Origin: Chiloscyllium plagiosum
Taxonomy: Eukaryota
Reading direction: 5' to 3'
Length of the DNA stretch: 33,639 nt
NCBI RefSeq assembly: GCF_004010195.1
Contig: NW_025213497.1
Location: 1-33,639 of the forward strand
Position numbers and translations under genes: made by a program. Numbering within the stretch: position 1 is the first letter of the stretch; every line of letters begins with the position of its first letter. Positions 1 through 33,639 of the stretch are shown here, piece after piece. The notes under the pieces were generated by a model. That model did not search any database, was not told where the DNA came from, and was given only the letters and a program-made list of their open reading frames with translations.

Positions 1-1030
1 TACATGTGGTGGTTGGCGATGATAAGTAAATTTCCAGATGAGGTAAATATTGACGTGTTTTACAGTGGGGAAACTCATCTTAGGTTACAGAGAGAAATAG
101 TCAGATTGATCAAATGGGCAGAGCAGTGGCATATGGAATTTAATCCTGATAACTGTGAGGTCATGACTTTGACAGAATTTACAAGACAAGGCAGAAATCA
201 ATGAATGATAGCATGCTGGGAACCACAAAAGAGGCAAACGTGAGGACTGCAGATGCTGGACATTAGAGTGGAGATTGAGGTGCTGAAAAAGCACAGCAGG
301 TCAAGCAGCATCTGAGGAGCAGGAGCATCGATGTTTCATTCAAAAGCCCTTCATCAGGACATGTACCTCAAAGGAACCAAACGATCTTGAGATGCTTGTC
401 AATAGATCCATGAAGGTAGCAGGATGGGTTAATAGAGGAGTTAAGAAGGCACATAGTGGAGGCATAGATTTTCAGAGCTGGGAGGTCCTGTTGGAGCTGT
501 ACATGATTTTGGTTCAGCCACAGTTGGAGTATGGTGTGTGGTTCTGGTCACTGTACCATAGGGAGGATGAGATGGCATTGCAGGGAGTGCAAAGGAGATT
601 CAGTAGAATATTCTTTGGACAGCAGCAATTTAGCAGCAAAGAGGGAGGCTGGAAAAGCTGGGATTGCATAACTTAGAACAGCGATTGGCGTATATAAAAC
701 GATGAGGAGAGTGGACAGGGGTGAACAAAAACAGTTGTTACCCTTAGTCAAAAGGCTAATAACGGGTTGTATAATTTTGAGATGAAAGGCAAGAGTTTAA
801 GGGGGGACATGAGGAAAAATCTTCTCACCCAGAGGATGTTAGGGGCCTGCAATGCACTGACCAAGAGGGTAGTTCAGGTGAGAAACCTCAACTTGCATCA
901 GTACTTGACATGTCACAACATTCAAGGATAAGGCCCCACCGCTGGAAAGTGGGAATAATGTAGATTTAACGTAGGGTTAGCATGATGGGTCAAAGGGCAT
1001 CTTCTGTTCTCTGGGATTCAATCATTCTGT
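1..1030 (+). mobile_element. Decayed CR1-type (HER1-like) LINE, 3' part of ORF2 and 3' UTR
   Basis: Translations ISKFPDE (SKFADD), WAEQWHMEFNPDNCEVM and EVLLELYMILVQPQLEYGVWFWS...GVQRRFSR match the CR1 ORF2 C-terminus. Multiple stops and frameshifts; interrupted at ~236-358. Confidence 0.85.
236..358 (-). mobile_element. Short Penelope-like terminal-repeat fragment with degenerate hammerhead motif
   Basis: Homologous to the 6468-6644 element. Minus strand reads CTGATGA-AGGGCTTTTGAAT-GAAACATC (357..330). Confidence 0.65.
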
Positions 1031-1567
1031 AATTCTGAAATGAAGTTTCGGAATCAATTCCTAGTTTGTTCCGGTCTTTTCAGAGGAAATATTTCCCAGT
1101 GTAAATTCCAACTGTTGATGTGGTCAGTATTGGCTTCAGGTTCTCTATTAGAGTGCTCATTCACAGATAGAATTTACCAAATGTGTTGGAAAACGGAATG
1201 AACGACAAGAGCAGTGGGATAACAGTGTGCAGTAGAACAGCTCTTAAGGAGCTCGACAGCATGAGGGATTGAATGACTGAATAACCTCATCAAAATGAAG
1301 GTCGTCAATGAAAAGAATATCAGGAGATATTTGGTTATTGATGGGACTGGTGGTGATTAAAATAATATTTCAAGTATTGTTGTTTGAAGACGAGTTGCAA
1401 GGAGCATTTAACAACGAATAGGATCAGATTAATTCCAGTCTTTGGGTGATTCAAATGCAGACTAAATCTCAATGTTATCATATCGCCAAAATAAACCTGT
1501 TGTCCTAATGACATTGTTCAAAATTATATTTAAAAAATCATAGATTCCCAGTGGAGATACTACACAA

Positions 1568-1574
1568 TATAAAA
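1568..1574 (+). promoter_or_regulatory. Possible TATA box of the GPCR gene
   Basis: TATAAAA about 105 nt upstream of the exon-1 ATG. The context is AT-rich, so this is weak. Confidence 0.3.
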
Positions 1575-1675
1575 TAAAGTCTCTGGAATTGTGTCAGCTC
1601 CAACTCCGAGAGAATTCTCCACTTTCGACAGATTGACAGCAGCAGGAAAACAGCGGGTGTTTCACAATCAACAAA

Positions 1676-1742
1676 ATGCATCTGCCAAGGCAAATGGTCG
1701 CTAAAGTATATTACACTGTCCTTGCTGTTGTTGGTGTTCCTG
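1676..1742 (+). pseudogene. GPR139/GPR142-like GPCR pseudogene, coding exon 1
   Basis: ATG...MHLPRQMVAKVYYTVLAVVGVP+G followed by a GTAAGT donor at 1743. The phase-1 junction joins exon 2 in frame and completes TM1 (GVP-V-S-IKAIVLLSR). Confidence 0.85.
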
Positions 1743-3774
1743 GTAAGTCTTGTAAGTATTTAAATTTCTATAAAACTCTACATTAAATCACTCATTTCGG
1801 CTCTATGACTGACGATTATTTTCTTTCTATTTATTAAGGCAAATCACGAAGCCAGATAATAGTGCTCTCGCTTACTGAGTTTAAAGCGATTCGTTTGTCA
1901 TTGCAAAGGCTCCTCAGTAATGTGCAGCACTATCTGTTTCTCTGTACTTTGCAGAATGGGTTTGCCCCCGAGGCCACATTGATGGGTTTTGGCTTAGCAC
2001 CAGCCCTGGCTGGTCTGGAAAGTATTAGCAACACCACTTGCTCTCAGTGGGAGTTCAAAGCCTGCTATTGGTCAGATGAATTTTGTAATAACCCACCACT
2101 TATTGATAGCTTGTGCTTCTCATTCCTTGATGTGAAGGGTTTGTGTTGGTTGGACTTGATCGGGTGGCTCAATATAAATGGGAGCGTAGATACACACAAT
2201 GGGTGGATCGGGTAAATTATTATGGAGTGATAAGCGAAGGGCAGATGACCTTGATGACTTTGTGTGCTTTTCTTCGTCAGTGGATGTGTGGAGGAATGAT
2301 TTTTTGAAGGCAGATAATCAGGTTAATATGACTTCCAAATGCTTGATAGAAATGCATATTGTTAACATTTCCAAACTAACTCCGTCGTGTAATTCTTCAG
2401 CTGAGAAAAGAAAATCTCTATCTCTAGTTCATAGACACTCTGCATTATTGTTTGATTGATTGGAATGTTGTGCACTGTTTTTCCAGATCTCCAGGAGTCA
2501 CTCTGAATGAAGGTGTTACTGATTGTGGAGTTGTACTGAATGGGGATAACCTCTTATTACTGTGGCCTCATGGTGCTGGGAAACTGTGTAATTGTAGAAT
2601 GTACTGAGTGTGGGGAACAGCTCAGATATGAACTTCGGACCCAGTGTTCTTGCTTTTCTCTGGTATCAGTAAATGCAGCATTGCGATAAGTGTCATGACC
2701 TCAATTGGAAATATTATTGGGAATATCTTTCACTGGAGAGCTGTGTTGAATTTGGGTCAATAATCTGAAGGCAACATCCGATTCCCGTGGCAATGTGAGG
2801 CAGTGAGCAGCTTTCTGTAAAAATCTAACTGTGTCTGGGTTCTTAGCCAACGGAGAACAATGAGTCCAGTGTCCACGTGTTACTGCGGAGCATCTGTCGA
2901 AATACAATTACACTGAGCATGAGTCACCAACAAGAGGGAAACAATAGTGGTCTGGCACAAGAAGGAGTATCTCTGAGGATAGAATTTAACTCGTGGGGAA
3001 CTGAATGAAAGGGAAGATTTGAATGCAGTTGTAACGAGGAATATAATTTGACTGAAACCATGCGATGCTTCTTTTACGTTACATTTCTCATTTCTGATCT
3101 GTTCACTGATAGGGCTGTGAATGAAATTTGGAAACACAATGGATTAAAAGTGGGAAAATCATTAGTTGAATATATTTGATACTAAGTTTTCAAAGTGAAG
3201 TGTTCTATTAGGGTTAAATAGATGCGACTTCTTGGGAAAAAATAAAATAATAGACAACGATGTGAATTCAAATAATGTTCCACAGTCATATAATGTTTTC
3301 TTAAATAATATTTTTGGGAGTGATTAATCTTCCAGCAATATTTGAACAAGCTGTGGGACATGATTACTCTCATTAAATATCTCAATGTCAATCAGGATGG
3401 CTATCGAACGAGACTGGCTGCCACTGTTTCACCTCTGAAAGGTTGGATGCCGGGTTCTGAGTTCTTGCTGAATTCACGGCGTCCATTATCCCAATAAATT
3501 GCTGAACTCTTGTGAGTATCAAAGCCAAGATACAGATCCTTTTGACTCAGTTGACTGTGCTGTGATCTGGTCTATGTGTGGGCATTCCCTACTGCAGAAA
3601 GTTGTCATGAGTCAAGTGAAGGATCTCTTATCTTCAAAAGTGGATTGGTTTTGGGAATTGCATATTTGTGACAATCAATTTAGAGTCGGAATATTCATTT
3701 CAATGGGATGCTGTAAGAATGGGAGGAGTTGACTATACTGGGGAGTTAGGTGTGTGTTAGGAGCTCCATTTTCT

Positions 3775-4594
3775 GTTATTCATTCAATGCAAGTGGGTGT
3801 GACTGCCTCGGCCAGTAATTACCATCCATCCACATCAGAGACACCAAGTTGTCGTGCATTTGGAGTCACTTGTAGGCCAGGCCATGGAAGGATGAAAGAT
3901 TATCTTCTTTAAGGAACATCTGTAAANNNNNNNNNNNNNNNNNNNNNNNNNNNNNNNNNNNNNNNNNNNNNNNNNNNNNNNNNNNNNNNNNNNNNNNNNN
4001 NNNNNNNNNNNNNNNNNNNNNNNNNNNNNNNNNNNNNNNNNNNNNNNNNNNNNNNNNNNNNNNNNNNNNNNNNNNNNNNNNNNNNNNNNNNNNNNNNNNN
4101 NNNNNNNNNNNNNNNNNNNNNNNNNNNNNNNNNNNNNNNNNNNNNNNNNNNNNNNNNNNNNNNNNNNNNNNNNNNNNNNNNNNNNNNNNNNNNNNNNNNN
4201 NNNNNNNNNNNNNNNNNNNNNNNNNNNNNNNNNNNNNNNNNNNNNNNNNNNNNNNNNNNNNNNNNNNNNNNNNNNNNNNNNNNNNNNNNNNNNNNNNNNN
4301 NNNNNNNNNNNNNNNNNNNNNNNNNNNNNNNNNNNNNNNNNNNNNNNNNNNNNNNNNNNNNNNNNNNNNNNNNNNNNNNNNNNNNNNNNNNNNNNNNNNN
4401 NNNNNNNNNNNNNNNNNNNNNNNNNNNNNNNNNNNNNNNNNNNNNNNNNNNNNNNNNNNNNNNNNNNNNNNNNNNNNNNNNNNNNNNNNNNNNNNNNNNN
4501 NNNNNNNNNNNNNNNNNNNNNNNNNNNNNNNNNNNNNNNNNNNNNNNGAATTAATAGTCTCATATGATAAGACCACTTGGCCATCACCTCTCCT
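3775..4594 (-). mobile_element. SacSINE1/Deu-domain-like SINE split by an assembly gap
   Basis: Left of the gap, ggagtcacttgtaggccaggcc...aaggaacatc is homologous to 25491-25560. Right of the gap, ttaatagtct...ccacttggccatcacctctcc resembles the reverse-complemented tRNA-derived head. Confidence 0.6.
3927..4547. other. Assembly gap (621 N)
   Basis: Run of N. Confidence 1.
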
Positions 4595-5591
4595 AATGCT
4601 TGGCATTGGATTGAATGCTCAGAAGCAGCCTCTGATACCAAGCAATGGTACAATGTATGGCTGTCCCAGAACAAGCTGGGGTACAATTCTGTTGACCTCC
4701 ATGGAGAGCGCTGCTTTAACTATGGCGATTCCTCACCCCAGGTTTTGCTCCGAATCTGGGAGGAGGATCTCTGTTCACAAGGAGAACTGCAGGAGCCTGG
4801 ACATCAGGCAGGAAGCTTTGTTTCATCTCGTAATTTCCAAACCGGAAATTTGCAATGACCAAAGCTACATAAATTCAGATATTATTTGAATGGGGGCTGT
4901 GATGTACAATCTTTAAGATTGTGTGGGGACTTCATATCAAATATTAACATTCTTCTGATTGCAACTTGGGAAATGGTGGTTGGATTCCCTGCTGAAAATT
5001 TCTATACTTCAGATTGTCATTATATCAAATCTTGTACAAGTGCGGGCGGGGGTTAGGGTGGTGGGGAGCTGGCAGGGGTAGCAGTTCAATGGATACTCAT
5101 TTCTTCATTGTCATTACAGAGGGCATCCATTCCTGAATACTGGAAGGATTCACTGCCCTCTTGCATAGTTACACAGTGTGGATGTGCCATTCTAGAAGTA
5201 ATCCGAGCTGTGGAGACTCCACAAATGAGTGCAGGAATTTTGTAATCAATGTCCGTGTTCTGTGTCTCTCATTCTTTATTGAACCCGAGTGGTTTTGTGT
5301 TGATGTTGTGGTCTTATGAGTAACTCCAGCCAATCAGAGTAACCTGTAAAGCAGAAGAAATTAATTACTGATTAATCCAAAAATACTGAGTACACATCAT
5401 GTTCCTGGGTGTTATTTGAACCTCATGTGATTCCCTACATTTTTGAAAAGGCAAAATATTTAATTTGACAGTGTTAACTATAATGGTTCGGCCGATATGA
5501 CATACAAACTTTTTTGTACTAAAACCGTCAGGTGCAGAGAATATTTGATCAGTAACTTCATGTCTTTTATCTTTCTTTCTTTCTCTTATAG

Positions 5592-6469
5592 TTAGTATCA
5601 AGGCGATTGTACTCTTGTCTAGGGACAAGTGCGGTCTTTCAAGATGCACCACTCACTATCTGGTTGCGATGGCTGTATCTGATCTCCTGTTCATTATTCC
5701 TGACGTCATACTTATTGAGTTTTCATCCTATTATTATCCCCGGTGTTTCCTGAACATTGCTCCTCTTTGTAGCATAAACGTGGCCCTTATCAACTTTGCA
5801 ATTGATTGGTCTGTCTGGTTCACTGTCGCTTTTTCTTTTGATCGCTTTGTCACCATTTGTTTTCATCAGATGAAACCTCAGTATTGCACAGAGTAAACTG
5901 TAAACAGAGTTCTGGCAACAATTTGTATTTTCTTTTCAATAAAGAACATTCCCAACTATTTTGACTTGAACCTGGAAGGATCATCAACAATGTTCCATGG
6001 TATTATTACACCAGTCACAGTTACTTTAATGAACCTTTGTGGGTGAGTTTTAAATATATTTCATCATTTTTAACACCACTGCTTCCATTCATTTTGATTC
6101 TTTTTCTCAATGTTCTAACGTCAGACACATCACCGAAGCCAATAAGGCACGTAAGGGACTGAGGGGTCAGAAAATAACAGAGAATGACCCAGAGATAGAG
6201 AGCAGAAAGAATGCTGCGACTATACTTTTCTCTATATCTGGCAGCTTCATACTTCTCTGGCTGGTGTATGTTCTATATATGTATGATACCGGTTATTATG
6301 TGGATGATTTTTATCTCTGTCAACAAGTTGTGGATATGCTGCGGAACCTCAGTTGCTGCACCAATTCACTAATTTATGTATAACACAGAAAAAAATTAAA
6401 GCCCAGTTAAATTATGCAGTAAAATATCCAGTAATAAAATTTATTCAATTGGTGAATAATTCCATGTAG
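5592..6469 (+). pseudogene. GPR139/GPR142-like GPCR pseudogene, coding exon 2 (end of TM1 to TM7 and C-tail)
   Basis: Polypyrimidine tract and AG acceptor at 5590-91. Motifs: LSRDKCGLSRCTTHYLVAMAVSDLL (TM2), SVWFTVAFSFDRFVTIC (TM3), KNIPNYF, LTPLLPFILILFLNVLT/VRHI (TM5), DPEIESRK, SISGSFILLW (TM6), LSCCTNSLIYV/TQ (TM7), AVKYP; stop TAG 6467-69. Lesions: TAA 5894-96 and -1 frameshifts at ~5967, ~6120 and ~6380. Confidence 0.92.
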
Positions 6470-6644
6470 CTGCAAATGTGTTGCTGGAAAAGCGCAGCAG
6501 GTCAGGCAGCATCCAAGGAGCAGGAGAATCGACGTTTCGGGCATGAGCATTCTCCTGCTCATTGCATGCTGCCTGACCTGCTGCGCTTTTCCAGCAACAC
6601 ATTTTCAGCTCTGATCTCCAGCATCTGCTGTCCTCACTTTCTCC
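6468..6644. mobile_element. Foldback (inverted-repeat) Penelope-like terminal element
   Basis: Arms 6468-6529 and 6549-6610 are near-perfect reverse complements. The 19-nt spacer reads GCTCATGCCC-GAAACGTCG on the minus strand (3' half of a hammerhead). Unpaired tail to 6644. Confidence 0.75.
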
Positions 6645-7949: not shown

Positions 7950-9440
7950 TAGAGTTAAGCCATGGAGCCATCGAGTCAAAGAGACATGCAGCACGGAAAC
8001 AAATCCTTCAGTCCAACCTGTCCCTGCCGACCAGTTTTCCAAACATATCTAGTCCCATTTGCTAGCACTTAGCCCATTTCCCTCTAAACACTTCCTATTC
8101 CTATACCCATTCAGGTGCCTTTTAATGTTGGAATTATATCAGTCTTCCTCAGGCAGCTCATTCCATACACACACCACACTCTGCGTGAAATTCTAACCCC
8201 CGAGGTCCCTTTCGAATGTTCCCCACTTACGCTAAACCTATGCCCTCCAATTATTCTCTCCCCAACCCCAGAGAAAATGCTTTATATATTCACCTTGTCT
8301 ATGCCCGTCATGATTTTATAAACATCTATATGATCTTCCCTCAGCATCTGACACTGCAGAGAAAACAGACCCAGCCTATTTAGCCCCGCCCTTTAGCTCA
8401 AATTCTCCAACCATGGCAACATCCCTGTAATTGTTTTCTGAACCCTTTCAAGTTTACCAACATTTTCCCTCTCACAGGGAGACCAGGACTGAACGCACTT
8501 CACATTTATCTGAAGTAATCATTGGTCTCTCCTAAGCCCATTGGCCCATCAGATCAAGGTCACATTGTAATCTGACATAAAATTCTTCACCGTACAGTCC
8601 TTTGATTCTTCACCCATGTTTGTAGATGATACAAGTATTTCAATTGGGGGCTCGCAATTTCCTCCCTACCGTCCTATAGTGTTCTGGGATACTCTTGTCT
8701 GGTCCTGGGGATTTATCTACATTTATGTTTTCTAAGACCTCTAGCACTTTCTCTTCCATCATGTAAACTGTTATCAAAACGTAAATCCTTATTTCCCTGA
8801 GAAGTCTAATACCCATTTCTTTCTCAACAGTTACAACTGAAGCAAAATATTTATATAATATCTGTCCCATCTCCACAACGTCAATGTAAAGGCAATTTGC
8901 ACTCAATTTGCTCTCTTGCTCTTAATGGATTTGTAGAATCATTTTTTTAAAAAAATATTCAAATCTTATCTGGCATTCCATCTCATCCCGTCTTTGCCTT
9001 CATGATTTTCTTCCTAAGAGTACCGCTTCACTCTTTAAACTCGTCATGAGAGTCAGTAGATCATAGTAAACTGTATTTATTATATGATTTTTTAAAAAAT
9101 TCTTGACAACAACTTAATTAACTATGTTCATCCATTGTTCCCTAATCTTATCCAGCGCTGCCTTTCACTCTAACAGGAACACTATGCTTCTGAACTCTTA
9201 TTATCACACGACTGAAGGCCTCCCATTTGCGAACAGTTTATTCCAATCAACTTTTCAAAGCTCATTTTTATACCCTTAAAATGTGCCTTACTCCAATTAA
9301 GATCTTTAACTTTTGTGGAAGGCTTATTCATTTCCATAACTATTTTGTAACTGATAGTATTATGATCATTAGTGCCAAAGTGTTCCCCGACTAACACTTC
9401 AGTCATTTGCCTTGCTTTATTTCCTAAAAGCTGCTGTATA
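7950..9440 (-). mobile_element. CR1 (HER1-like) LINE, internally deleted
   Basis: 3' UTR at ~7950-8070 is homologous to 25823-25930. ORF2 pieces EEKVLEVLENINVDKSPGPD, GQILYKYFASV and GEHFGTNDHNTISYKIVME. Confidence 0.85.
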
Positions 9441-13189: not shown

Positions 13190-14490
13190 CAAATTGTGCA
13201 TGATGTAGATAAAGGAGATGTAGATATGTGCATGATGTAGATATGTAAATGGAGCTGCTCCATTTAATCAACATCCATAACCCATGAAAGTTGGCACAGG
13301 TTTAAAAGGACATTGAACGCATGCTCCAAGATGACATAATCAAAGCAAGTGTGACTGGAGCTCAGCCATAACAATGTTTCCAAAATCAAATGGCACCCAA
13401 TGGTTATGTATGGACTATTGCAAAATCAACGCAGTTACAAAGACTGATGCATATCCAATTCTGAAGTTTGAAGACTGTGTTGAGAAGGTGGTACAATCAT
13501 TTTTTTTTTCTATGTTGGACATGCTCAGAGAATATTGGCAGATATCTTTGCTAGAAAGAGCAAAGGCAGTTTTGGCTTTAGTAGCGCCGAATGGACTGTA
13601 TCAATTTAAAATCATGCCAATTGGCATGAAAAATGTGCCAGCCATGTTTCAGAGACTAACCAATAAGGTCATTGACGGATTACCATACAGTGTTGTTTAT
13701 ATAGAAGACCTGGTGAGTTTTACTCACACATGGAAGGAACATTTACAACATTTTTCAGACTTGTTCAATTGAGTTCAAAAGGCAGGCTTGGTGATAAACC
13801 TGGCTAAATGTAAATTTGCCAAATCCGAAGTCACTTTCCTGGGCCATCTTATTGGAAAAAATGTTCCACGGGAAGCAAAAGCAAAGGCAATTGGGAAGTT
13901 TCCCTTACCATCAATAAAAACAGCAGGACTACGGTTCCTGGGATTGAATGCATTTTATCAAAGGTTTTTGCCACATTTTAGCAGCATGGCTGTTCCACTC
14001 ACCGAATTGCTAAAGGAAGGCAAGAGGTTGCAATGGACAGCGGGCTGTCACAAGGCAGTCGACAGCCTGCAAGCTGTGTTAACCATTGCCCCAGCATTAA
14101 CCAGAGCTAATTATGCAAAGCTTTTCAAGGTGGCTATCGATGTAAGTCTTACGGTTGTCGGTGCTGTGTTCTTGCAGGAAAACAACGAGAAGATGGAAAG
14201 ACCTATCGGGTATTTCTCCAGGAGGTGGGGCATCATCCACAGGAATATTCGATGGTTGAGAAGGAGGCTTTCAGCTGGACATTGGCATTACAACATATCA
14301 GTGTTCATGTTACCGGTAACGGATCTGAGACAATCATATACACTGATCATAGCCCATTGAAGTTTGTGGAGAAAGTTAAGGACAAAAAATCCATACATTT
14401 AGATGGGGTTTGAAGATCAATTTGAAGATTATGCATGTGGCAGGATGAGAAAACGCGATTACCGACACATTGTCAAGACTCTAATAAGAA
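13190..14490 (+). pseudogene. pol: Gypsy-type reverse transcriptase and RNase H, disrupted
   Basis: LCMDYCKINAVTKTDAYPI, MPIGMKNVPAMFQR, VYIEDL (decayed YIDD), NLAKCKF...VTFLGH, FKVAIDVS..VGAVFLQ, YSMVEKEA, IIYTDHSPL. Confidence 0.92.
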
Positions 14491-16724: not shown

Positions 16725-17350
16725 TTAAACAGAACTTATATAGCTGTAACATAATGTCCCATCTCCTATACTCTTCTCTTTGACTGACGGAGGCCAGCAT
16801 GCTAAATGCCTTCTTCACCACCCTGTCTACCTGTGGCACCATTTTCCAAGGACTATATACTTGTAGTCCTAGGCCCTCTATTCCACAGCTCTCCTCAGGA
16901 CCTTAGAATTTACGGTATAAGTTCCATCTTGGTTTGACTTTCCAAAGTGCAACACCTCACATATATCTGTATTGAACTGCATTTGCCAATCCTCAGCCCA
17001 CTTCCCTGTAATTTTTGCTAACCTTCCTCGCTATCAACGATGCATCTTAATTTTGCATCATCCGCAAACTTACTCATCATGACTTGCACATTTACATCCA
17101 GATCATTTATGTCAATAACAAATACCGAAGGTCCCAGCACTGACCCCTATGGCTCACCACTAGCCACAGGCCACAAGTACAAGAAACGACCTTCAACAAT
17201 TACACTCTGCTTGCCACCATTGAGTCAATTTTGAATCCAGTGAGCTAACTCTCCCTATGTGCCGTCACCGAGCATTCATTAATCGCCTGCCATACAGGAC
17301 CTTGTCAAAGGCCTTACTAAACTCTATATGGACAGCATCTCCAACCTCAT
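16725..17350 (-). mobile_element. CR1 LINE RT fragment
   Basis: GSVLGPSVFVIDINDLDVNVQVMMSKFADDAKL and QVDRVVKKAFSMLASVSQREEYRRWDIMLQLYK. Confidence 0.9.
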
Positions 17351-17389: not shown

Positions 17390-19290
17390 ATGGTCCGGAA
17401 TCAAACCCGAATCAAACGCTTGGAAAGCAACTATGCTCAAACTTCTATAGTAACATTGCTCATTGATGGACCTTTGAGTGTCCATTGGTGAAGCAGGTAA
17501 AGATAGTTAGATCGATGATGTTTCCTGAGGTGTTCTTGCAGAGGTGTCCTGAAGGTGAATTTGCTGACATGAACAATAATAACTGCCTTCCTTCTTGCTT
17601 GTTATTGATGCCACCAGCGCAGAGCTTTCTCTGGAGTCTCATTACAACACTTTGGCTCAGCAGGTAACAAGTTTTCGATATTTACGTTCTCGGACCACAA
17701 ACTTTTCAGTATCCAGTGCCTCCTGTAATTCCGTAATATCAGGGAGAATGAGTTGAAATGGCTGGAGATTGGGATCTGTGAACATGGGAACCTCAGGAGG
17801 AGGCTGAAATGGATCAACTTCTTAGTATTTTTGGTTGAAGATGATTGCAAATGTTTCAGCTTTATCTTTTGAACCAGTGTTCTGGACTCCCCCATAACTG
17901 AGGTTATGGTCCTTGAAGAGCAGCCGTCTCACCCAGTGGTTTAATTGTCCACCATCTCTTATGACTAAATGTGTCTAAGCGGATATCAGCCAAACTTAGA
18001 TGTGATGTAAAATCAGCAATTGCTGGTGGAACACAGCAGGTCTGGCAGCACCAGTGGGGAGAAAGCTGAGTCTCTTTGGTTATGTTGATCGCTTGTCCAT
18101 CATGTGTTCCATGCAAAAGTCGTACTGTTTTGTAGCTTCACTGGGTTGGAACCACATATGTTGGGTTTTCAGTTCTGCTGATGGTATGTCCTGTTGCACT
18201 CTTCATTGAACTCGTCTGAAGGCATTCTACTCATCTACTCACCGAGATGACTTTTCAATGTTGTAATTGTACCAGCTTCCACCATAAAGCCATAGGGTCA
18301 TACAACATGGAAACAGACACTTCGATGCATCCAGTCCAAGCTGAACATATTCCCAAACTAAAATGGTCCCACTGCCAGATCCTGACCCATATTTCTTCAA
18401 ACTCTTCCTATTCATGTATCCATTAAAATGTCCTTGTTCCATGCATGCATCATCTCTTGCTTGAAGGAATTGCCCACCAGGTCCTTTGAAATCTATGCCC
18501 TCTCACTTTAAACCAATGCCACCTCGTTTTGGACTCTTTTACCCTTTGGGACGACCTTGGCTGTTTACCCTATCCATGTCCCTCATACGTTACCAACATC
18601 TATAAATACTTTTTTCAGTCTCAGACCCTCCAGAGTAAAAAAAAAGCCCCAGGCTATTGAACGCCTCCCTGTATCTCAAATCCTCCAGTTAGGTATGTCG
18701 GGAAGATAGTCTATGATTGTCTCTGCAAGGTATAATTCTGATGCAGTAGATGGCCCACTGAACGTCCTGGACACCTCGTCATAAGTTGGTCGATCTGTTC
18801 GAAGTCTGCCCCATTTCACAAAGAGACAGTGCCACACTGCATGATGCAGTGTCGATAAAATGTGGGGTAGGCAGATTGGTGACAATGCCTTTGGAATGTC
18901 CCATCTCAGTCAGCAGGTGGTGCTGCTGAGCCTGCCTTGGTGATGGACGCTGAAGCCTCCCACAGAGTCCATTCTCTCTCCTTTCCACCTTCAATGTAGA
19001 GTTCAAATAAGGAAATTTGAGTAATGCGTTAATTGATAATCAGCAGAATGTTTTTGTGCCCACGTTTAACCTGAGGCTTCATGGGTACAGGAATCAATGC
19101 TGAGCACTTCCATTGTACAATCACCCCCCCTCCCCACTTTGATTGTATCCCACGTGGCTGCTATATCTGCTGACTTTGTCCTGACAGTGCGACAGGACCT
19201 GCACTGAGATGATCATAGTCTTGTCTGGGACATTGTCTGGAAAGTGGGATTCTGGGAGTGTGACTACGTACGATTATTATTGGATTTGCC
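17390..19290 (-). mobile_element. Old CR1/L2-group LINE (second family), endonuclease-to-RT pieces with nested inserts
   Basis: 17800-17960 is homologous to 21830-21990. 19140-19270 resembles an APE endonuclease N-terminus. Nested pieces at ~18010-18070 (Penelope-like) and ~18245-18690 (CR1). Confidence 0.6.
18245..18690 (-). mobile_element. Rearranged CR1 (HER1-like) 3' end
   Basis: HFNGYMNRKSLKKYGSGSG and a 3' UTR matching 28500-28640. Confidence 0.8.
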
Positions 19291-25700: not shown

Positions 25701-25822
25701 TGAGCCAATTCGAAGGCTGATTTTCTGGTTAATTTAGAACCCAACTTGATTGTTCTAATTACAAAATAATGGTTTAACTTTTATTGTTTATAATTTAATG
25801 TTAATTTGTCCCGAATTGGCTT

Positions 25823-26900
25823 AGAGTCATAGACATGTACTGCACGGAAACAGACCCTTCGGTCCAACCCGTCCATGCGACCAGATATCCCAACCCACTC
25901 TAGTCCCACCTGTCAGCACCCGGCCCATATACCTCCACACATTCCCGATTCATATAGACATCCAAATGCTTTTTCAAATATTGCAATTGGACTAGCCTCC
26001 ACCACTTCCTCTGCCAGCTCATTCCATATATGTACCACACTCTGCGTGAACAAGTTGCTCCTTAGGCTTCTTTGATATCGTTCCCCTCTCACCCTAAGCC
26101 TATGCCATCCAGTTCTGGACTCCCCGACCCCAGAGAAATGACCTTGTCTACTTACCATATCCATGCCCCTCATAATTTTGAAAACCGCTATAAATCACCC
26201 CTCAGCCTGTGATGCTCCAGGGAAAACAGCGCCAGCCTGTCCAGTCTCTCCCTATAGCTTAAACGCTCCAACCCTGGCAACATCCTTGTAAATCTTTCCT
26301 GAACCCTTTCAAGTTTCACAACACGTTTCTGATAGGAAACAGACCAGAATTGCACATAATATAACAACAGTTGTCTAACCATTGTCCTATACAGCCGCAA
26401 AATGACCTCCCAACTCCTGTACTCAGTACTCTGACCGATAAAGGAAAGCATACGAAACGCCTTCTTCACTGTCCTACATGTGACTCCACTTGCAAGGAGC
26501 TATGAACCTGCACTCCAAGGTTTCTTTGTTCAGAAACACTGCCGAGGACTTGAACATTAATTGTGTAAGTTCTGCTAAGATTTGCTTTCTCAAAGTATAG
26601 CACCTCTCATTTATCTGAATTAATCTCCATCTACCACTTCTCAGCCCATCGGCCCATCTGAACAAGATCCTGCTGTAATATGAGATAACCTTCTTCGCTG
26701 TCCACTACACCTCCAAAATTGGGGTCGTCTGCAAACTTACTAACCATACTTCCTATATTAACATCCAAATCATTTACATAAATGAGGAAAAATAGTGGAC
26801 CCATAAACGATCCTTGTTGTACACCACTAGCGACAGGCCTCCAGTCTGATAAATAACCCTCCACCACCACCCTCTGTCTTCTACATTTGAACCAATTCTG
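25823..26900 (-). mobile_element. CR1 (HER1-like) LINE, 5'-truncated
   Basis: RRQRVVVEGYLSDWRPVASGVQQGSFMGPLFFLIYVNDLD..SKFADD through the ORF2 end, 3' UTR and ctatgact tail. Confidence 0.95.
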
Positions 26901-27096
26901 AAGTGGGGACTGTCTATAACAATCGCTTGAATTCATTGGGCAATATTGTGAGACTATGCAGTCTGTGTCTGGTCGAGATGGATTAGTGCATTTGCTCAGT
27001 AGGAAGTTTGAAGGACCTGTCGATAAACAGCATAAATTATTTTCACAAAGGCTGGCATTAAGTACGAATGTGGAAGAATAATCTATATGTGAGTGA

Positions 27097-28155: not shown

Positions 28156-28648
28156 AAAGAGTTCAGAAAAGATTTACAAGGATGTTGCCAGGGTTGGAGG
28201 ATTTGAGCTACAGGGATAGGTTGAACAGGCTGGGGATGTTTTCTCTGGAGCGTCGGAGGCTGAGGGGTGACTTTATAGAGGTTTACAAAATTATGAGGGG
28301 CATAGATAGGGTAAATAGGCAAAGTCTTTTCCCTGGGGTCGGGGAGACCAGAACTAGAGGGCATTCATTTAGGGTGAGAGGGGAAAGATATGAAAGAGAC
28401 CTCAGGGATAAGTTTTTCACACAGAGGGTGGTACGTGAATGGAATGAGCTGCCAGAGGATATGATGGAGGCTGGTACAATTGCAACATTTAAGAGGCATT
28501 TGGATGGGTATATGAATAGGAAGGGGTTGGAGGGATATGGGCCGGGTGCTGGCAGGTGGGACTAGATTGGGTTGGGATATCTGGTCGGCATGGGCAGGTT
28601 GGACCGAAGGGTCTGTTTCCATGCTGTACATCTCTATGACTCTATGAC
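28156..28648 (+). mobile_element. Young CR1 (HER1-like) LINE 3' end
   Basis: Uninterrupted RVQKRFTRMLPGLEDLSY...GAGRWD* (stop 28563-65), 3' UTR and (ctctatga)2 tail. Confidence 0.95.
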
Positions 28649-30582: not shown

Positions 30583-31275
30583 GATGTCAACACCTCCTGC
30601 TGCCTGAGGGGACGTACCCCACTCTCACACACATGCACACTGCATCCTGTCCAACCCCCTCCCCGTCCAGTCATGTGGTCACCCAGGCGTCCCTCCTTAT
30701 GCACACATTCAGACGCTATGGCAACAGGGATGGAATGGGATGTACCTGAGGAGACTAAAGCCAGGAAGCATAGAATGGACAGAATCTCCATTCCGTCTTG
30801 TTACTCTCCGTCAGTGTGCAGTTCGGGCCCTGAGAGTGTTTGGGGGTGAAGGCCCAGGACAGGATGGACTGAACCCAAAGCAAACCTCCTTCCCAGGGAT
30901 CAGGAGCAGCGAGCCATTGCCTGTCTCTTGGGCAGTCAGACTGTTGCTCGCCATTTGTCAGGCCCAGCCTGAATCGAGGCCGGTACTCGCTCCACAGCAA
31001 CACCTCCACAGCACCTACCCCTACGCCACGTCAGCCTCAGGCTGGGAGAGGGTAATGGAGGCTTGGAGTCCAAGGCCGAAGCCAATAAATCTTCAGTAAG
31101 TGGGATTCTGCTCAGGAAAGCCTTGTTGCCAAGGGGACTCACTCAGAGCATCCTCATTTCGCTGGTGATTGAGAAGGAGCACATGGGAAGGTCACATAGT
31201 CTCCTGGGAGTTCCAGTCAATATTCACTCACTGTCTCCAGGTTTGATGCTCTCTCTGTCTCTCTGTATCTAGATC

Positions 31276-31687
31276 CAGAGTAAAGTTCTCTCTACACTGT
31301 CCCACGTCAAACACTCCCAGGATAGGGGCAGCACGGGGTCACATACAGAGTAAAGCTCCCTCTACATTGTCCGCATCAAACCCGGTATCTCGCCCCTGCT
31401 GTCCCTGAACTGGGAAGGTTTGATGGGGATGGTGTAGAGAGAGCTTTACTCTGTATCTAACCCTGTGCTGTCCCTGTCCCTGGGAGTGTTTGATGGGGGA
31501 TGGTGTAGAGAGAGCTTTACTCTGTATCGAACCCCGTGCTGTCCCTGTCCTGGGAGTGTTTGATGGGGGGACAGTGTAGAGGGAGCTTTACTCTGTATCG
31601 AACCCCGTGCTGTCCCTGTCCTGGGAGTGTTTGATGTGGGGACAGTGTAGAGGGAGCTTTACTCTGTATCTAACCCCGTGCTGTCCC
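31276..31687. repeat. ~70-bp minisatellite, left block, with orientation switch at ~31385
   Basis: Unit ggagtgtttgatggggacagtgtagagggagctttactctgtatctaaccccgtgctgtccctgtcctg; reverse-complement units at 31276-31381. Confidence 0.95.
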
Positions 31688-32631: not shown

Positions 32632-32839
32632 TACGGCGGAGGCGGAGGAATTGGGGATACGGGATGGCATTTTTGCAAGAGATAGGGTTGGAAGAGGTGT
32701 AATCCAGGTAGCTGTGGGAGTCGGTGGGTTTGTAAAAAATGTCAGTGTCAAGTCGGTCGTCATTAATGGAGATGGAGAGGTCCAGGAAGGGGAGGGAGGT
32801 GTCAGAGATGGTCCAGGTAAATTTAAGGTCAGGGTGGAA
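32632..32839 (-). mobile_element. Penelope-like element RT C-terminal fragment
   Basis: Open frame FHPDLKFTWTISDTSLPFLDLSISINDDRLDTDIFYKPTDSHSYLDYTSSNPISCKNAIPYPQFLRLRR. Confidence 0.9.
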
Positions 32840-33568
32840 GTGTTTGATGGGGACAGTGTAGAGAGAGCTTTACTCTGTATCTAACCCCGTGCTGTCCCTG
32901 TCCTGGGAGTGTTTGATGGGGGGACAGTGTAAAGGGAACTTTACTCTGTATCTAACCCCGTGTTGTGTGTGTCCTGGGAGTGTTTGATGGGGGGACAGTG
33001 TAGAGTTGCTTTACTCTGTATCTAACCCCGTGTTATGTGTGTCCTCGGAGTGTTTGATGGGGGGACAGTGTAGAGGGAGCTTTACTCTGTATCTAACCCC
33101 ATGCTGTCCCTGTCCTGGGAGTGTTTGAAGGGGACAGTGTAAAGGGAACTTTACTCTGTATCTAACCCCGTGCTGTCCTGGTCCTGGGAGTGTTTGATGG
33201 GGGGACAGTGTAGAGGGAGCTTTACTCTGTATCTAACCCCGTGTTGTGTGTGTCCTGGGAGTGTTTGATGGGGGGACAGTGTAGAGGGAGCTTTACTCTG
33301 TATCTAACCCCGTGCTGTCCCTGTCCTGGGAGTGTTTGATGGGGGCACAGTGTAGAGGAAGCTTTACTCTGTATCGAACCCCGTGTTGTGTGTGTCCTGG
33401 GAGTGTTTGATGGGGGGGCGGACTGTGTAGAGGAAGCTTTACTCTGCATCTAACCCCGTGCTGTCCCTGTCCTGGGAGTGTTTGATGGGGACAGTGTAGA
33501 GGGAGCTTTACTCTGTATCTAACCCCGTGTTGTGTGTGTCCTGGGAGTGTTTGATGGGGGGACAGTGA
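32839..33568. repeat. ~70-bp minisatellite, right block (about 10.5 units)
   Basis: Same unit as the left block. Confidence 0.97.
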
Positions 33569-33639
33569 CGTGAGTGCTTTATTTTCAGTTCAAAAGAGTC
33601 GAGGGAGATTTCATCTGTTTAAAGGAGTAGAGTAAGCTT

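Follow-up and report, generated by a model that had tools for sequence, protein, structure and literature searches.

What kind of receptor is broken in this piece of the Chiloscyllium plagiosum genome, and what did it once belong to? The window, by which we mean the whole 33,639-nucleotide stretch of DNA that was analysed, holds at 1676–6469 on the forward strand a damaged gene for a G-protein-coupled receptor (GPCR). We read the gene as a dead, unprocessed pseudogene; it is ordinary in itself, and its worth lies in being evidence of turnover. Its relatives, which databases label automatically as 'probable GPR139', form a family that is, judged from sequence, real, large and mislabelled. At a probability of roughly 0.62, we interpret the locus as one dead copy from a sensor panel that evolves by birth and death of genes; the members of this panel would recognize many ligands and feed one output.

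The gene model comprises two coding exons. Exon 1 (1676–1742, forward strand) begins with an ATG at 1676 and extends for 67 nucleotides (22 codons plus one base), ending in phase 1 directly before a GTAAGT donor at 1743; it supplies the start codon, an N-terminus of ~8 residues and most of transmembrane helix 1 (TM1). When the 39 open candidates running from an ATG to a phase-1 GT within 1–5500 were scored against family N-termini, this exon ranked first (mean 52.8). A shorter version that uses the same donor came second (51.2), and the next donor scored 1.5. Given this wide margin, exon 1 is not a chance choice. It is 77% identical over 22 residues to the N-terminus of an intact zebra-shark protein, P0001, which has the same start and exon junction as the window copy. 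The intron (1743–5591) runs from GTAAGT to a pyrimidine tract and a TATAG acceptor ending at 5591; its length of 3,849 bases is approximate, since 621 of them are an N assembly gap (3927–4547) with the exons on opposite sides. The coding part of exon 2 (5592–6469, forward strand, 878 nucleotides) covers the end of TM1 through helix 8, is split over three frames and closes with a TAG stop at 6467–6469. If each of the four breaks is replaced by an X, the translated product has 315 residues, 217 of which (69%) are identical to P0001.

A preliminary description of this DNA, made from its letters alone, had proposed the same two-exon pseudogene, with a 67-nucleotide first exon, a GTAAGT donor, a phase-1 junction, a ~3.85-kb intron, an 878-nucleotide second exon and four lesions interrupting a seven-helix receptor of ~315 residues with almost no N-terminal domain. 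The ranking against family N-termini, the P0001 junction and the alignment to P0001 all agree with it, and the 93-residue open reading frame that it mentioned is consistent with a TTG start at 5615 read up to TAA, as counted from the sequence. The anchors D2.50, (D/E)R3.50, W6.48 and Y7.53 were checked and place the product among class A (rhodopsin-like) GPCRs, and Pfam 7tm_1 matches the first piece of the coding sequence (E 7e-8). Hydropathy of the read-through gives six peaks at the threshold used; the seven helices rest on the alignment and on an AlphaFold model of intact P0001, which has seven long helices, helix 8 and short strands in extracellular loop 2 (ECL2) at a predicted local distance difference test score (pLDDT) of 72.5. 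Across the six frames of the window, the family profile found one locus only, in four pieces (best independent E-value 1.6e-59), and neither this search nor self-BLAST found a second family copy in the 33.6 kb.

The relatives of this receptor come chiefly from cartilaginous fishes, the nearest one from a carpet shark. All 14 matches of the first homology search were chondrichthyan. A profile search scored 8,000 candidates, 2,323 of them at E <= 1e-10, a set that may take in more distant GPCRs; its best 120 matches carried chondrichthyan (shark or ray) names without exception (120/120), and 72 of these 120 were distinct horn-shark paralogues (clusters at 90% identity, median pairwise identity 76%), a figure that is a lower bound on family size in that species. 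Exactly 325 residues were predicted for 22 of the 72. Groups of 24, 12 and 7 paralogues apparently lie on one contig each, implying clusters of the family on several chromosomes. Summed over a conserved stretch of TM3, contig depth greatly exceeded that of the near-identical pieces in all three contig runs; this depth is not usable as a copy number. In a further search, which returned 138 representatives (50% clustering) at E <= 1e-30, the high scorers among those named were sharks, rays and a chimaera, and the tail included salamander, coelacanth, teleost and amphioxus proteins. By its family motifs, its fit to a length of ~325 residues, its short N-terminus and its nesting in the tree described below, the window copy belongs inside this chondrichthyan 'probable GPR139' expansion. 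The four motifs picked out in the preliminary description (LSRxKCGLS, FSFDRF, DPExExR and SCCTNxxIY) each occur in 143–160 of 189 family sequences; in the amphibian orthologues introduced below, three of them occur in 0/18 and the FxFDR motif in 13/18. The lineage-expanded family with dead copies that was predicted from those motifs is supported, with at least 72 clusters in one species, where one or two homologues per shark genome would have spoken against it, and with the dead copy described here.

Several database models of the family are irregular. In a catshark model (P0205) an integrin alpha-X-like gene is joined to a member of the family, and in a smooth-hound model (P0198) a sodium-channel-like gene is; these are probably mis-joined neighbours and possible synteny anchors. 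Several models of 490–600 residues (P0015–P0019, P0070, P0084 and P0110) stand out by very high profile scores or by names such as 'mu-type opioid receptor-like' and 'CCR3-like'. They are likely to be adjacent family genes merged by annotation, and databases may therefore under-count and mis-name the family.

The position of the family was examined in a tree of 71 rows and 324 columns, rooted on four unnamed distant matches, in which 50 rows are family members (six of them unnamed representatives). The window copy pairs with P0001 (support 100/100) and nests in a 22-row clade (100/100) within the family (97/91). The family in turn joins an amphibian/sturgeon gene (100/99), and the next relatives are two more lineages of bony vertebrates (98/92 with the family). 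This sister group of the shark family is an apparently single-copy gene, a conserved 'probable GPR139' orphan of frogs, salamanders, a caecilian and sturgeon (P0233 and P0291–P0310, including Pleurodeles XP_069092602.1 and Acipenser RXM35349.1), and because of this gene the receptor lineage is not shark-only; confinement to sharks, rays and chimaeras applies to the expansion. A search with the salamander protein returned 25 matches from 1,675 candidates, of which 20 were amphibian, one was sturgeon, four were chondrichthyan and none was amniote or teleost; the 20 amphibian clusters were each named from a different species. Compared profile to profile, the family and the amphibian/sturgeon gene match at E 1.5e-48. 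They share motifs at the junctions of intracellular loop 1 (ICL1) with TM2, TM3 with ICL2 and ICL3 with TM6. Unlike the shark family, the amphibian/sturgeon gene has one cluster per named species, an invariant basic pocket and a variable intracellular face. Through the apparently single-copy gene of Xenopus and axolotl, the ancestral ligand and tissue could be approached in the laboratory.

Both of the next lineages (P0241, P0247, P0272 and P0274; P0262, P0285 and P0286) consist of GPR139-related bony-vertebrate orphans. One has members in coelacanth, in a teleost and in a crocodile, and the other is represented by bichirs and anchovy. They probably overlap the GPR210A/B orphans of Rinne et al. 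(PMC6504862). Those orphans, reported from coelacanth, gar and fishes, resemble the shark family in being non-mammalian and in lying next to GPR139/142; the main text of that paper contains neither 'shark' nor 'cartilaginous', lists no amphibian member and describes no expansion.

The sensor-panel interpretation draws on the distribution of variability within the receptor. Thirty pocket positions were fixed by generic class A numbering before variability was computed, and 29 had enough occupancy. Among the 72 horn-shark paralogues, entropy was 1.41 bits in the pocket, 0.49 in the other TM positions and 0.35 at the intracellular face. Among 18 full-length amphibian orthologues (two partial ones were left out), at a comparable mean identity (78% versus 75% in horn shark), the order was reversed, with 0.09, 0.41 and 0.71 bits, respectively. 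Subsampling the sharks to 18 sequences kept their pattern (1.24, 0.41 and 0.29 bits). At 12 core pocket positions, which were picked after the profile had been seen, the 72 shark paralogues have 71 distinct signatures and the 18 amphibian orthologues have one. The shark pattern is the one expected of a panel whose members bind many ligands and share a single signalling output, and the amphibian pattern would suit one receptor with a fixed ligand.

The chemistry of the two pockets differs as well. Horn-shark copies have an acidic pocket, with D/E at 3.37 in 98%, D5.39 in 89%, D5.42 in 74% and D/E at 2.57 in 90%. That of the amphibian orthologues is basic, with R2.61, K6.51, K6.55 and R7.35 in 18/18. 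Since the acidic residues lie deep in the pocket under hypervariable upper positions, we infer a shift to cationic ligands in sharks, which might be amines or basic peptides.

These patterns suggest the following course of events. One GPR139/142-related gene, distinct from GPR139 itself, would have been present in the jawed-vertebrate ancestor. It would have stayed apparently single-copy, its pocket frozen, in amphibians and sturgeon, and would have multiplied, partly in clusters, in cartilaginous fishes. Intact members would be receptors of ~325 residues with a near-absent N-terminus, a disulfide between C3.25 and ECL2, an intracellular face that hardly varies and a pocket that is almost unique to each member. 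Together they may act as a sensor panel in which many different ligands, presumably from outside the body or from microbes, converge on one shared G-protein output; Gq would be a guess for this output by analogy with GPR139, which reportedly couples to Gq.

Several points weigh against this interpretation. In a single-cell RNA run of a close relative (unspecified tissue, 2% of the run read) there were 13 partial paralogue reads, none at 99% or above and none from the window copy, and a catshark olfactory top-50 list (PMC11979771) contains no GPCRs, which has little weight either way. The 72 horn-shark paralogues are automatic gene models chosen by profile score, and some may be dead or mis-joined. 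The amphibian gene was judged to be single-copy from a word-seeded search with clustering at 90%, and the tree contains no true GPR139 or GPR142, so that their placement is outside its scope. Within the extracellular half of the shark receptors, the gap between pocket and non-pocket positions is modest (1.41 versus 0.88 bits, p 0.03); the pocket signal is thus in part general extracellular variability. Finally, pocket variability does not by itself separate relaxed constraint from positive selection.

The family is apparently undescribed. No published description of a chondrichthyan family was found in our literature search, which covers few subscription papers, so one may exist, and '139' is absent from the main text of the catshark atlas (PMC11979771). 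A whale-shark paper calls cartilaginous fishes relatively poor in GPCRs (PMC8455134), and a catshark survey gives 5–8 genes each for odorant receptors (OR), ORA and TAAR (PMC6368271). With 72 or more divergent members in a single shark and a pocket that differs in nearly every copy, the family contradicts the GPCR-poor and OR-poor picture drawn in those papers. New here are the amphibian/sturgeon sister group, the contrast between pocket and intracellular face, and the lack of the complete GPR139 Trp/Phe pocket.

If the family is a sensor panel, two roles lead. Tentatively, we place external chemosensation first: the family may be a fifth external chemoreceptor repertoire, sparsely expressed in olfactory, taste or skin sensory cells. 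Its anatomy is OR-like, with a very short N-terminus, clusters, pseudogenes and a hypervariable pocket, and feature neighbours in the ESM Atlas, to be taken as a lead only, include expanded invertebrate clusters of FMRFamide-receptor/Srw-like proteins. The few receptors reported for catshark (PMC6368271) would leave room for such a repertoire. Speaking against this role are the shark chemoreceptor papers found, which do not use the term GPR139, and the fact that immune GPCR families display the same sequence pattern. The chemosensory repertoire imagined in the preliminary description is no more than plausible, from pocket hypervariability. In its fullest and equally tentative form, the proposal is that cartilaginous fishes possess their own, independent fifth chemoreceptor repertoire, larger than the known OR, TAAR and ORA sets together, which would have arisen when a peptide-type orphan receptor, in amphibians and sturgeon apparently still single-copy and with a basic pocket, acquired an acidic pocket floor and came to recognize a wide range of cationic odorants or peptides. 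If true, this would account for the keen chemical sense of sharks in spite of the small number of receptors known from them. Like the family, odorant receptors, TAARs, formyl-peptide receptors and MRGPRs are marked by their birth-and-death evolution, clusters, pseudogenes and combination of a variable pocket with a conserved signalling face. Unlike those repertoires, the family has a coding intron and would have originated independently, from the branch on which GPR139/142 are related to the MIP/sex-peptide/FMRFamide receptors (PMC8514136 and PMC12208981).

The other leading role, which taken alone we regard as somewhat unlikely, is innate-immune or gut/barrier sensing of microbial or damage-derived peptides and amines, in the manner of formyl-peptide or MRGPR receptors. 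An acidic pocket floor would suit cationic peptides, and sharks are described in the whale-shark paper as lacking MAS1 and its relatives (PMC8455134). The catshark model fused with an integrin alpha-X-like gene hints weakly at adjacency to that gene. Fold matches of the P0001 model, which is of moderate quality, are peptide receptors of class A, none of which stands out (Z 15.3–16.6); this similarity is generic for class A, and the ranking lies within ~1 Z unit over many receptors.

Less likely than either role is a mostly non-adaptive expansion, which we consider improbable. Here segmental duplication driven by repeats would have multiplied the gene, most copies would decay, and pocket variability would reflect relaxed constraint. 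The window copy is indeed dead and sits among retroelements. However, relaxed constraint would not hold the intracellular loops near-constant (0.35 bits) while the pocket diverges, and the exact 325-residue length of 22 of the 72 horn-shark models also counts against it, as does the lack of a 26-bp array upstream of the window copy.

A further alternative concerns GPR139 itself. Among receptors of solved structure, human GPR139 (PDB 7vug, 9m42) comes closest to the family profile (E 7e-20; 74.3 bits versus 58.1 for the next). It also ranks first for the coelacanth relative, for the gene from Xenopus and for the profile of the amphibian sequences (E 7.5e-17 for the amphibian sister gene). With P0001 alone as the query, galanin receptor 1 (37.7 bits) came slightly above GPR139 (34.5 bits), and GPR139 was absent from the best 50 fold matches shown in either fold search (Z 15.3–16.6, moderate model). 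True GPR139 orthologues, by comparison, are 70% identical between human and zebrafish (PMC7318219). The preliminary description had called the receptor related to GPR139/142 and too divergent for a true orthologue; the low score against this benchmark and the missing pocket residues agree with it, and best matches in another GPCR family were seen for the single sequence and not for the profile. We conclude that the window copy, as far as its coding sequence can tell, is not the GPR139 orthologue, though it is GPR139/142-related. Like GPR139 and GPR142, the family is class A and has a short N-terminus, W6.48 and two exons, the number given for the GPR139 gene in PMC7318219. Unlike GPR139, of which the aligned stretch has no Cys at 3.25, the family has an invariant C3.25 together with a Cys in ECL2. 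Its ICL3 is longer and contains a DPExE motif, a genome holds many copies of it, and the similarity is only remote.

The pocket residues make it very improbable that family members are Trp/Phe sensors like GPR139, even though GPR139 is the best solved relative of the profile and W6.48 is kept in 186/189 family sequences. The residues that matter for activation of GPR139 by Trp/Phe are F3.33, H5.42 (5x43), W6.48 and N7.39 (7x38), according to PMC5430874, and were mapped by profile alignment and generic numbering. The window copy keeps one of the four. So do 147 of 189 family sequences; six keep three, none keeps all four, and R6.51 occurs in 4/189. The amino-acid sensor suggested in the preliminary description therefore finds no support in the family. 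The amphibian/sturgeon gene, unlike the shark family, keeps three of the four (18/18 amphibian orthologues).

The death of the window copy is recorded in four lesions on the forward strand. Lesion 1 (5894–5896) is a premature TAA in ICL2, where P0001 has Lys. The other three are deletions of one base at approximate positions: lesion 2 (5958–5964) at the boundary of TM4 and ECL2, beside a T run; lesion 3 (6118–6119) at the end of TM5; and lesion 4 (6381–6382) after the NxxIY motif of TM7. At each of these three frameshift sites the extra base is present in related contigs from public runs (X1, X2 and X9 for lesion 2, one X1 contig for lesion 3 and an X9 contig for lesion 4). A contig of the close relative (X2) spans 6301–6466 with 4/166 differences (2.4%) and no gaps; because this near-identical contig crosses the frameshift site without a gap, lesion 4 is real and shared by both. 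Among the contigs shown, no near-identical one spans lesions 1–3. The ECL2 cysteine, which is the disulfide partner of C3.25 and at least 90% conserved in the family, has become Tyr (6004–6006), and the helix-8 FR pair is also lost. Departures at 68 conserved columns number 10 in the window copy (one of them an X at a break) and 5 in P0001, whereas horn-shark copies show at most 5 and a median of 1, and the end branch in the tree is longer for the window copy (0.27 versus 0.17). Differences to the close relative, in near-identical pieces of two runs, accumulate at the same rate in exon (33/1013) and intron (25/822); with the comparison made on nine pieces chosen by hand from the 24 shown, some of them overlapping and some perhaps from recent paralogues, this may be read as a rough sign of neutral drift. 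The window copy probably died before its split from the close relative and has drifted since. That the lesions are errors in the assembly of an intact gene is hardly credible and largely refuted, for although the assembly is a gapped draft and lesion 2 adjoins a T run, lesion 4 recurs in a 2.4%-divergent contig of an independent run, and besides the nonsense codon both the ECL2 Cys and the FR pair of helix 8 are gone.

Other features of the window lie around the gene. A candidate TATA-like box (1568–1574, forward strand), found by motif scan, is located 108 bases upstream of the start codon. Neither a tandem array nor a 26-base periodicity was found upstream of exon 1 (1–1675), and either could lie beyond the start of the window. 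An inverted pair of repeat fragments (6468–6610, no strand assigned) forms a near-perfect 143-nucleotide hairpin that starts inside the receptor stop codon (-111 kcal/mol, z -15.8). The hairpin arises from two fragments of a common repeat, of which a related copy is found at 237–337. Rfam gave only sub-threshold microRNA-like matches on it, which were rejected as generic hairpin matches.

Further downstream, 13335–14360 contains decayed remains of a long terminal repeat retrotransposon that we take to be Ty3/Gypsy-like, with parts of its reverse transcriptase and its RNase H (Pfam RVT_1 and RT_RNaseH_2). Self-BLAST revealed related repeat copies at ~400–960, 7969–8462, 16737–17235, 18227–18687, 25822–26902 and 28156–28646. 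They presumably correspond to the 3' ends of CR1-type long interspersed nuclear elements; the two CR1-like pieces scanned against Pfam gave no match. Toward the end of the window, a 71-bp tandem satellite occupies 31270–31687 and 32835–33581, flanking an N gap, and has an inverted copy at 31270–31381.

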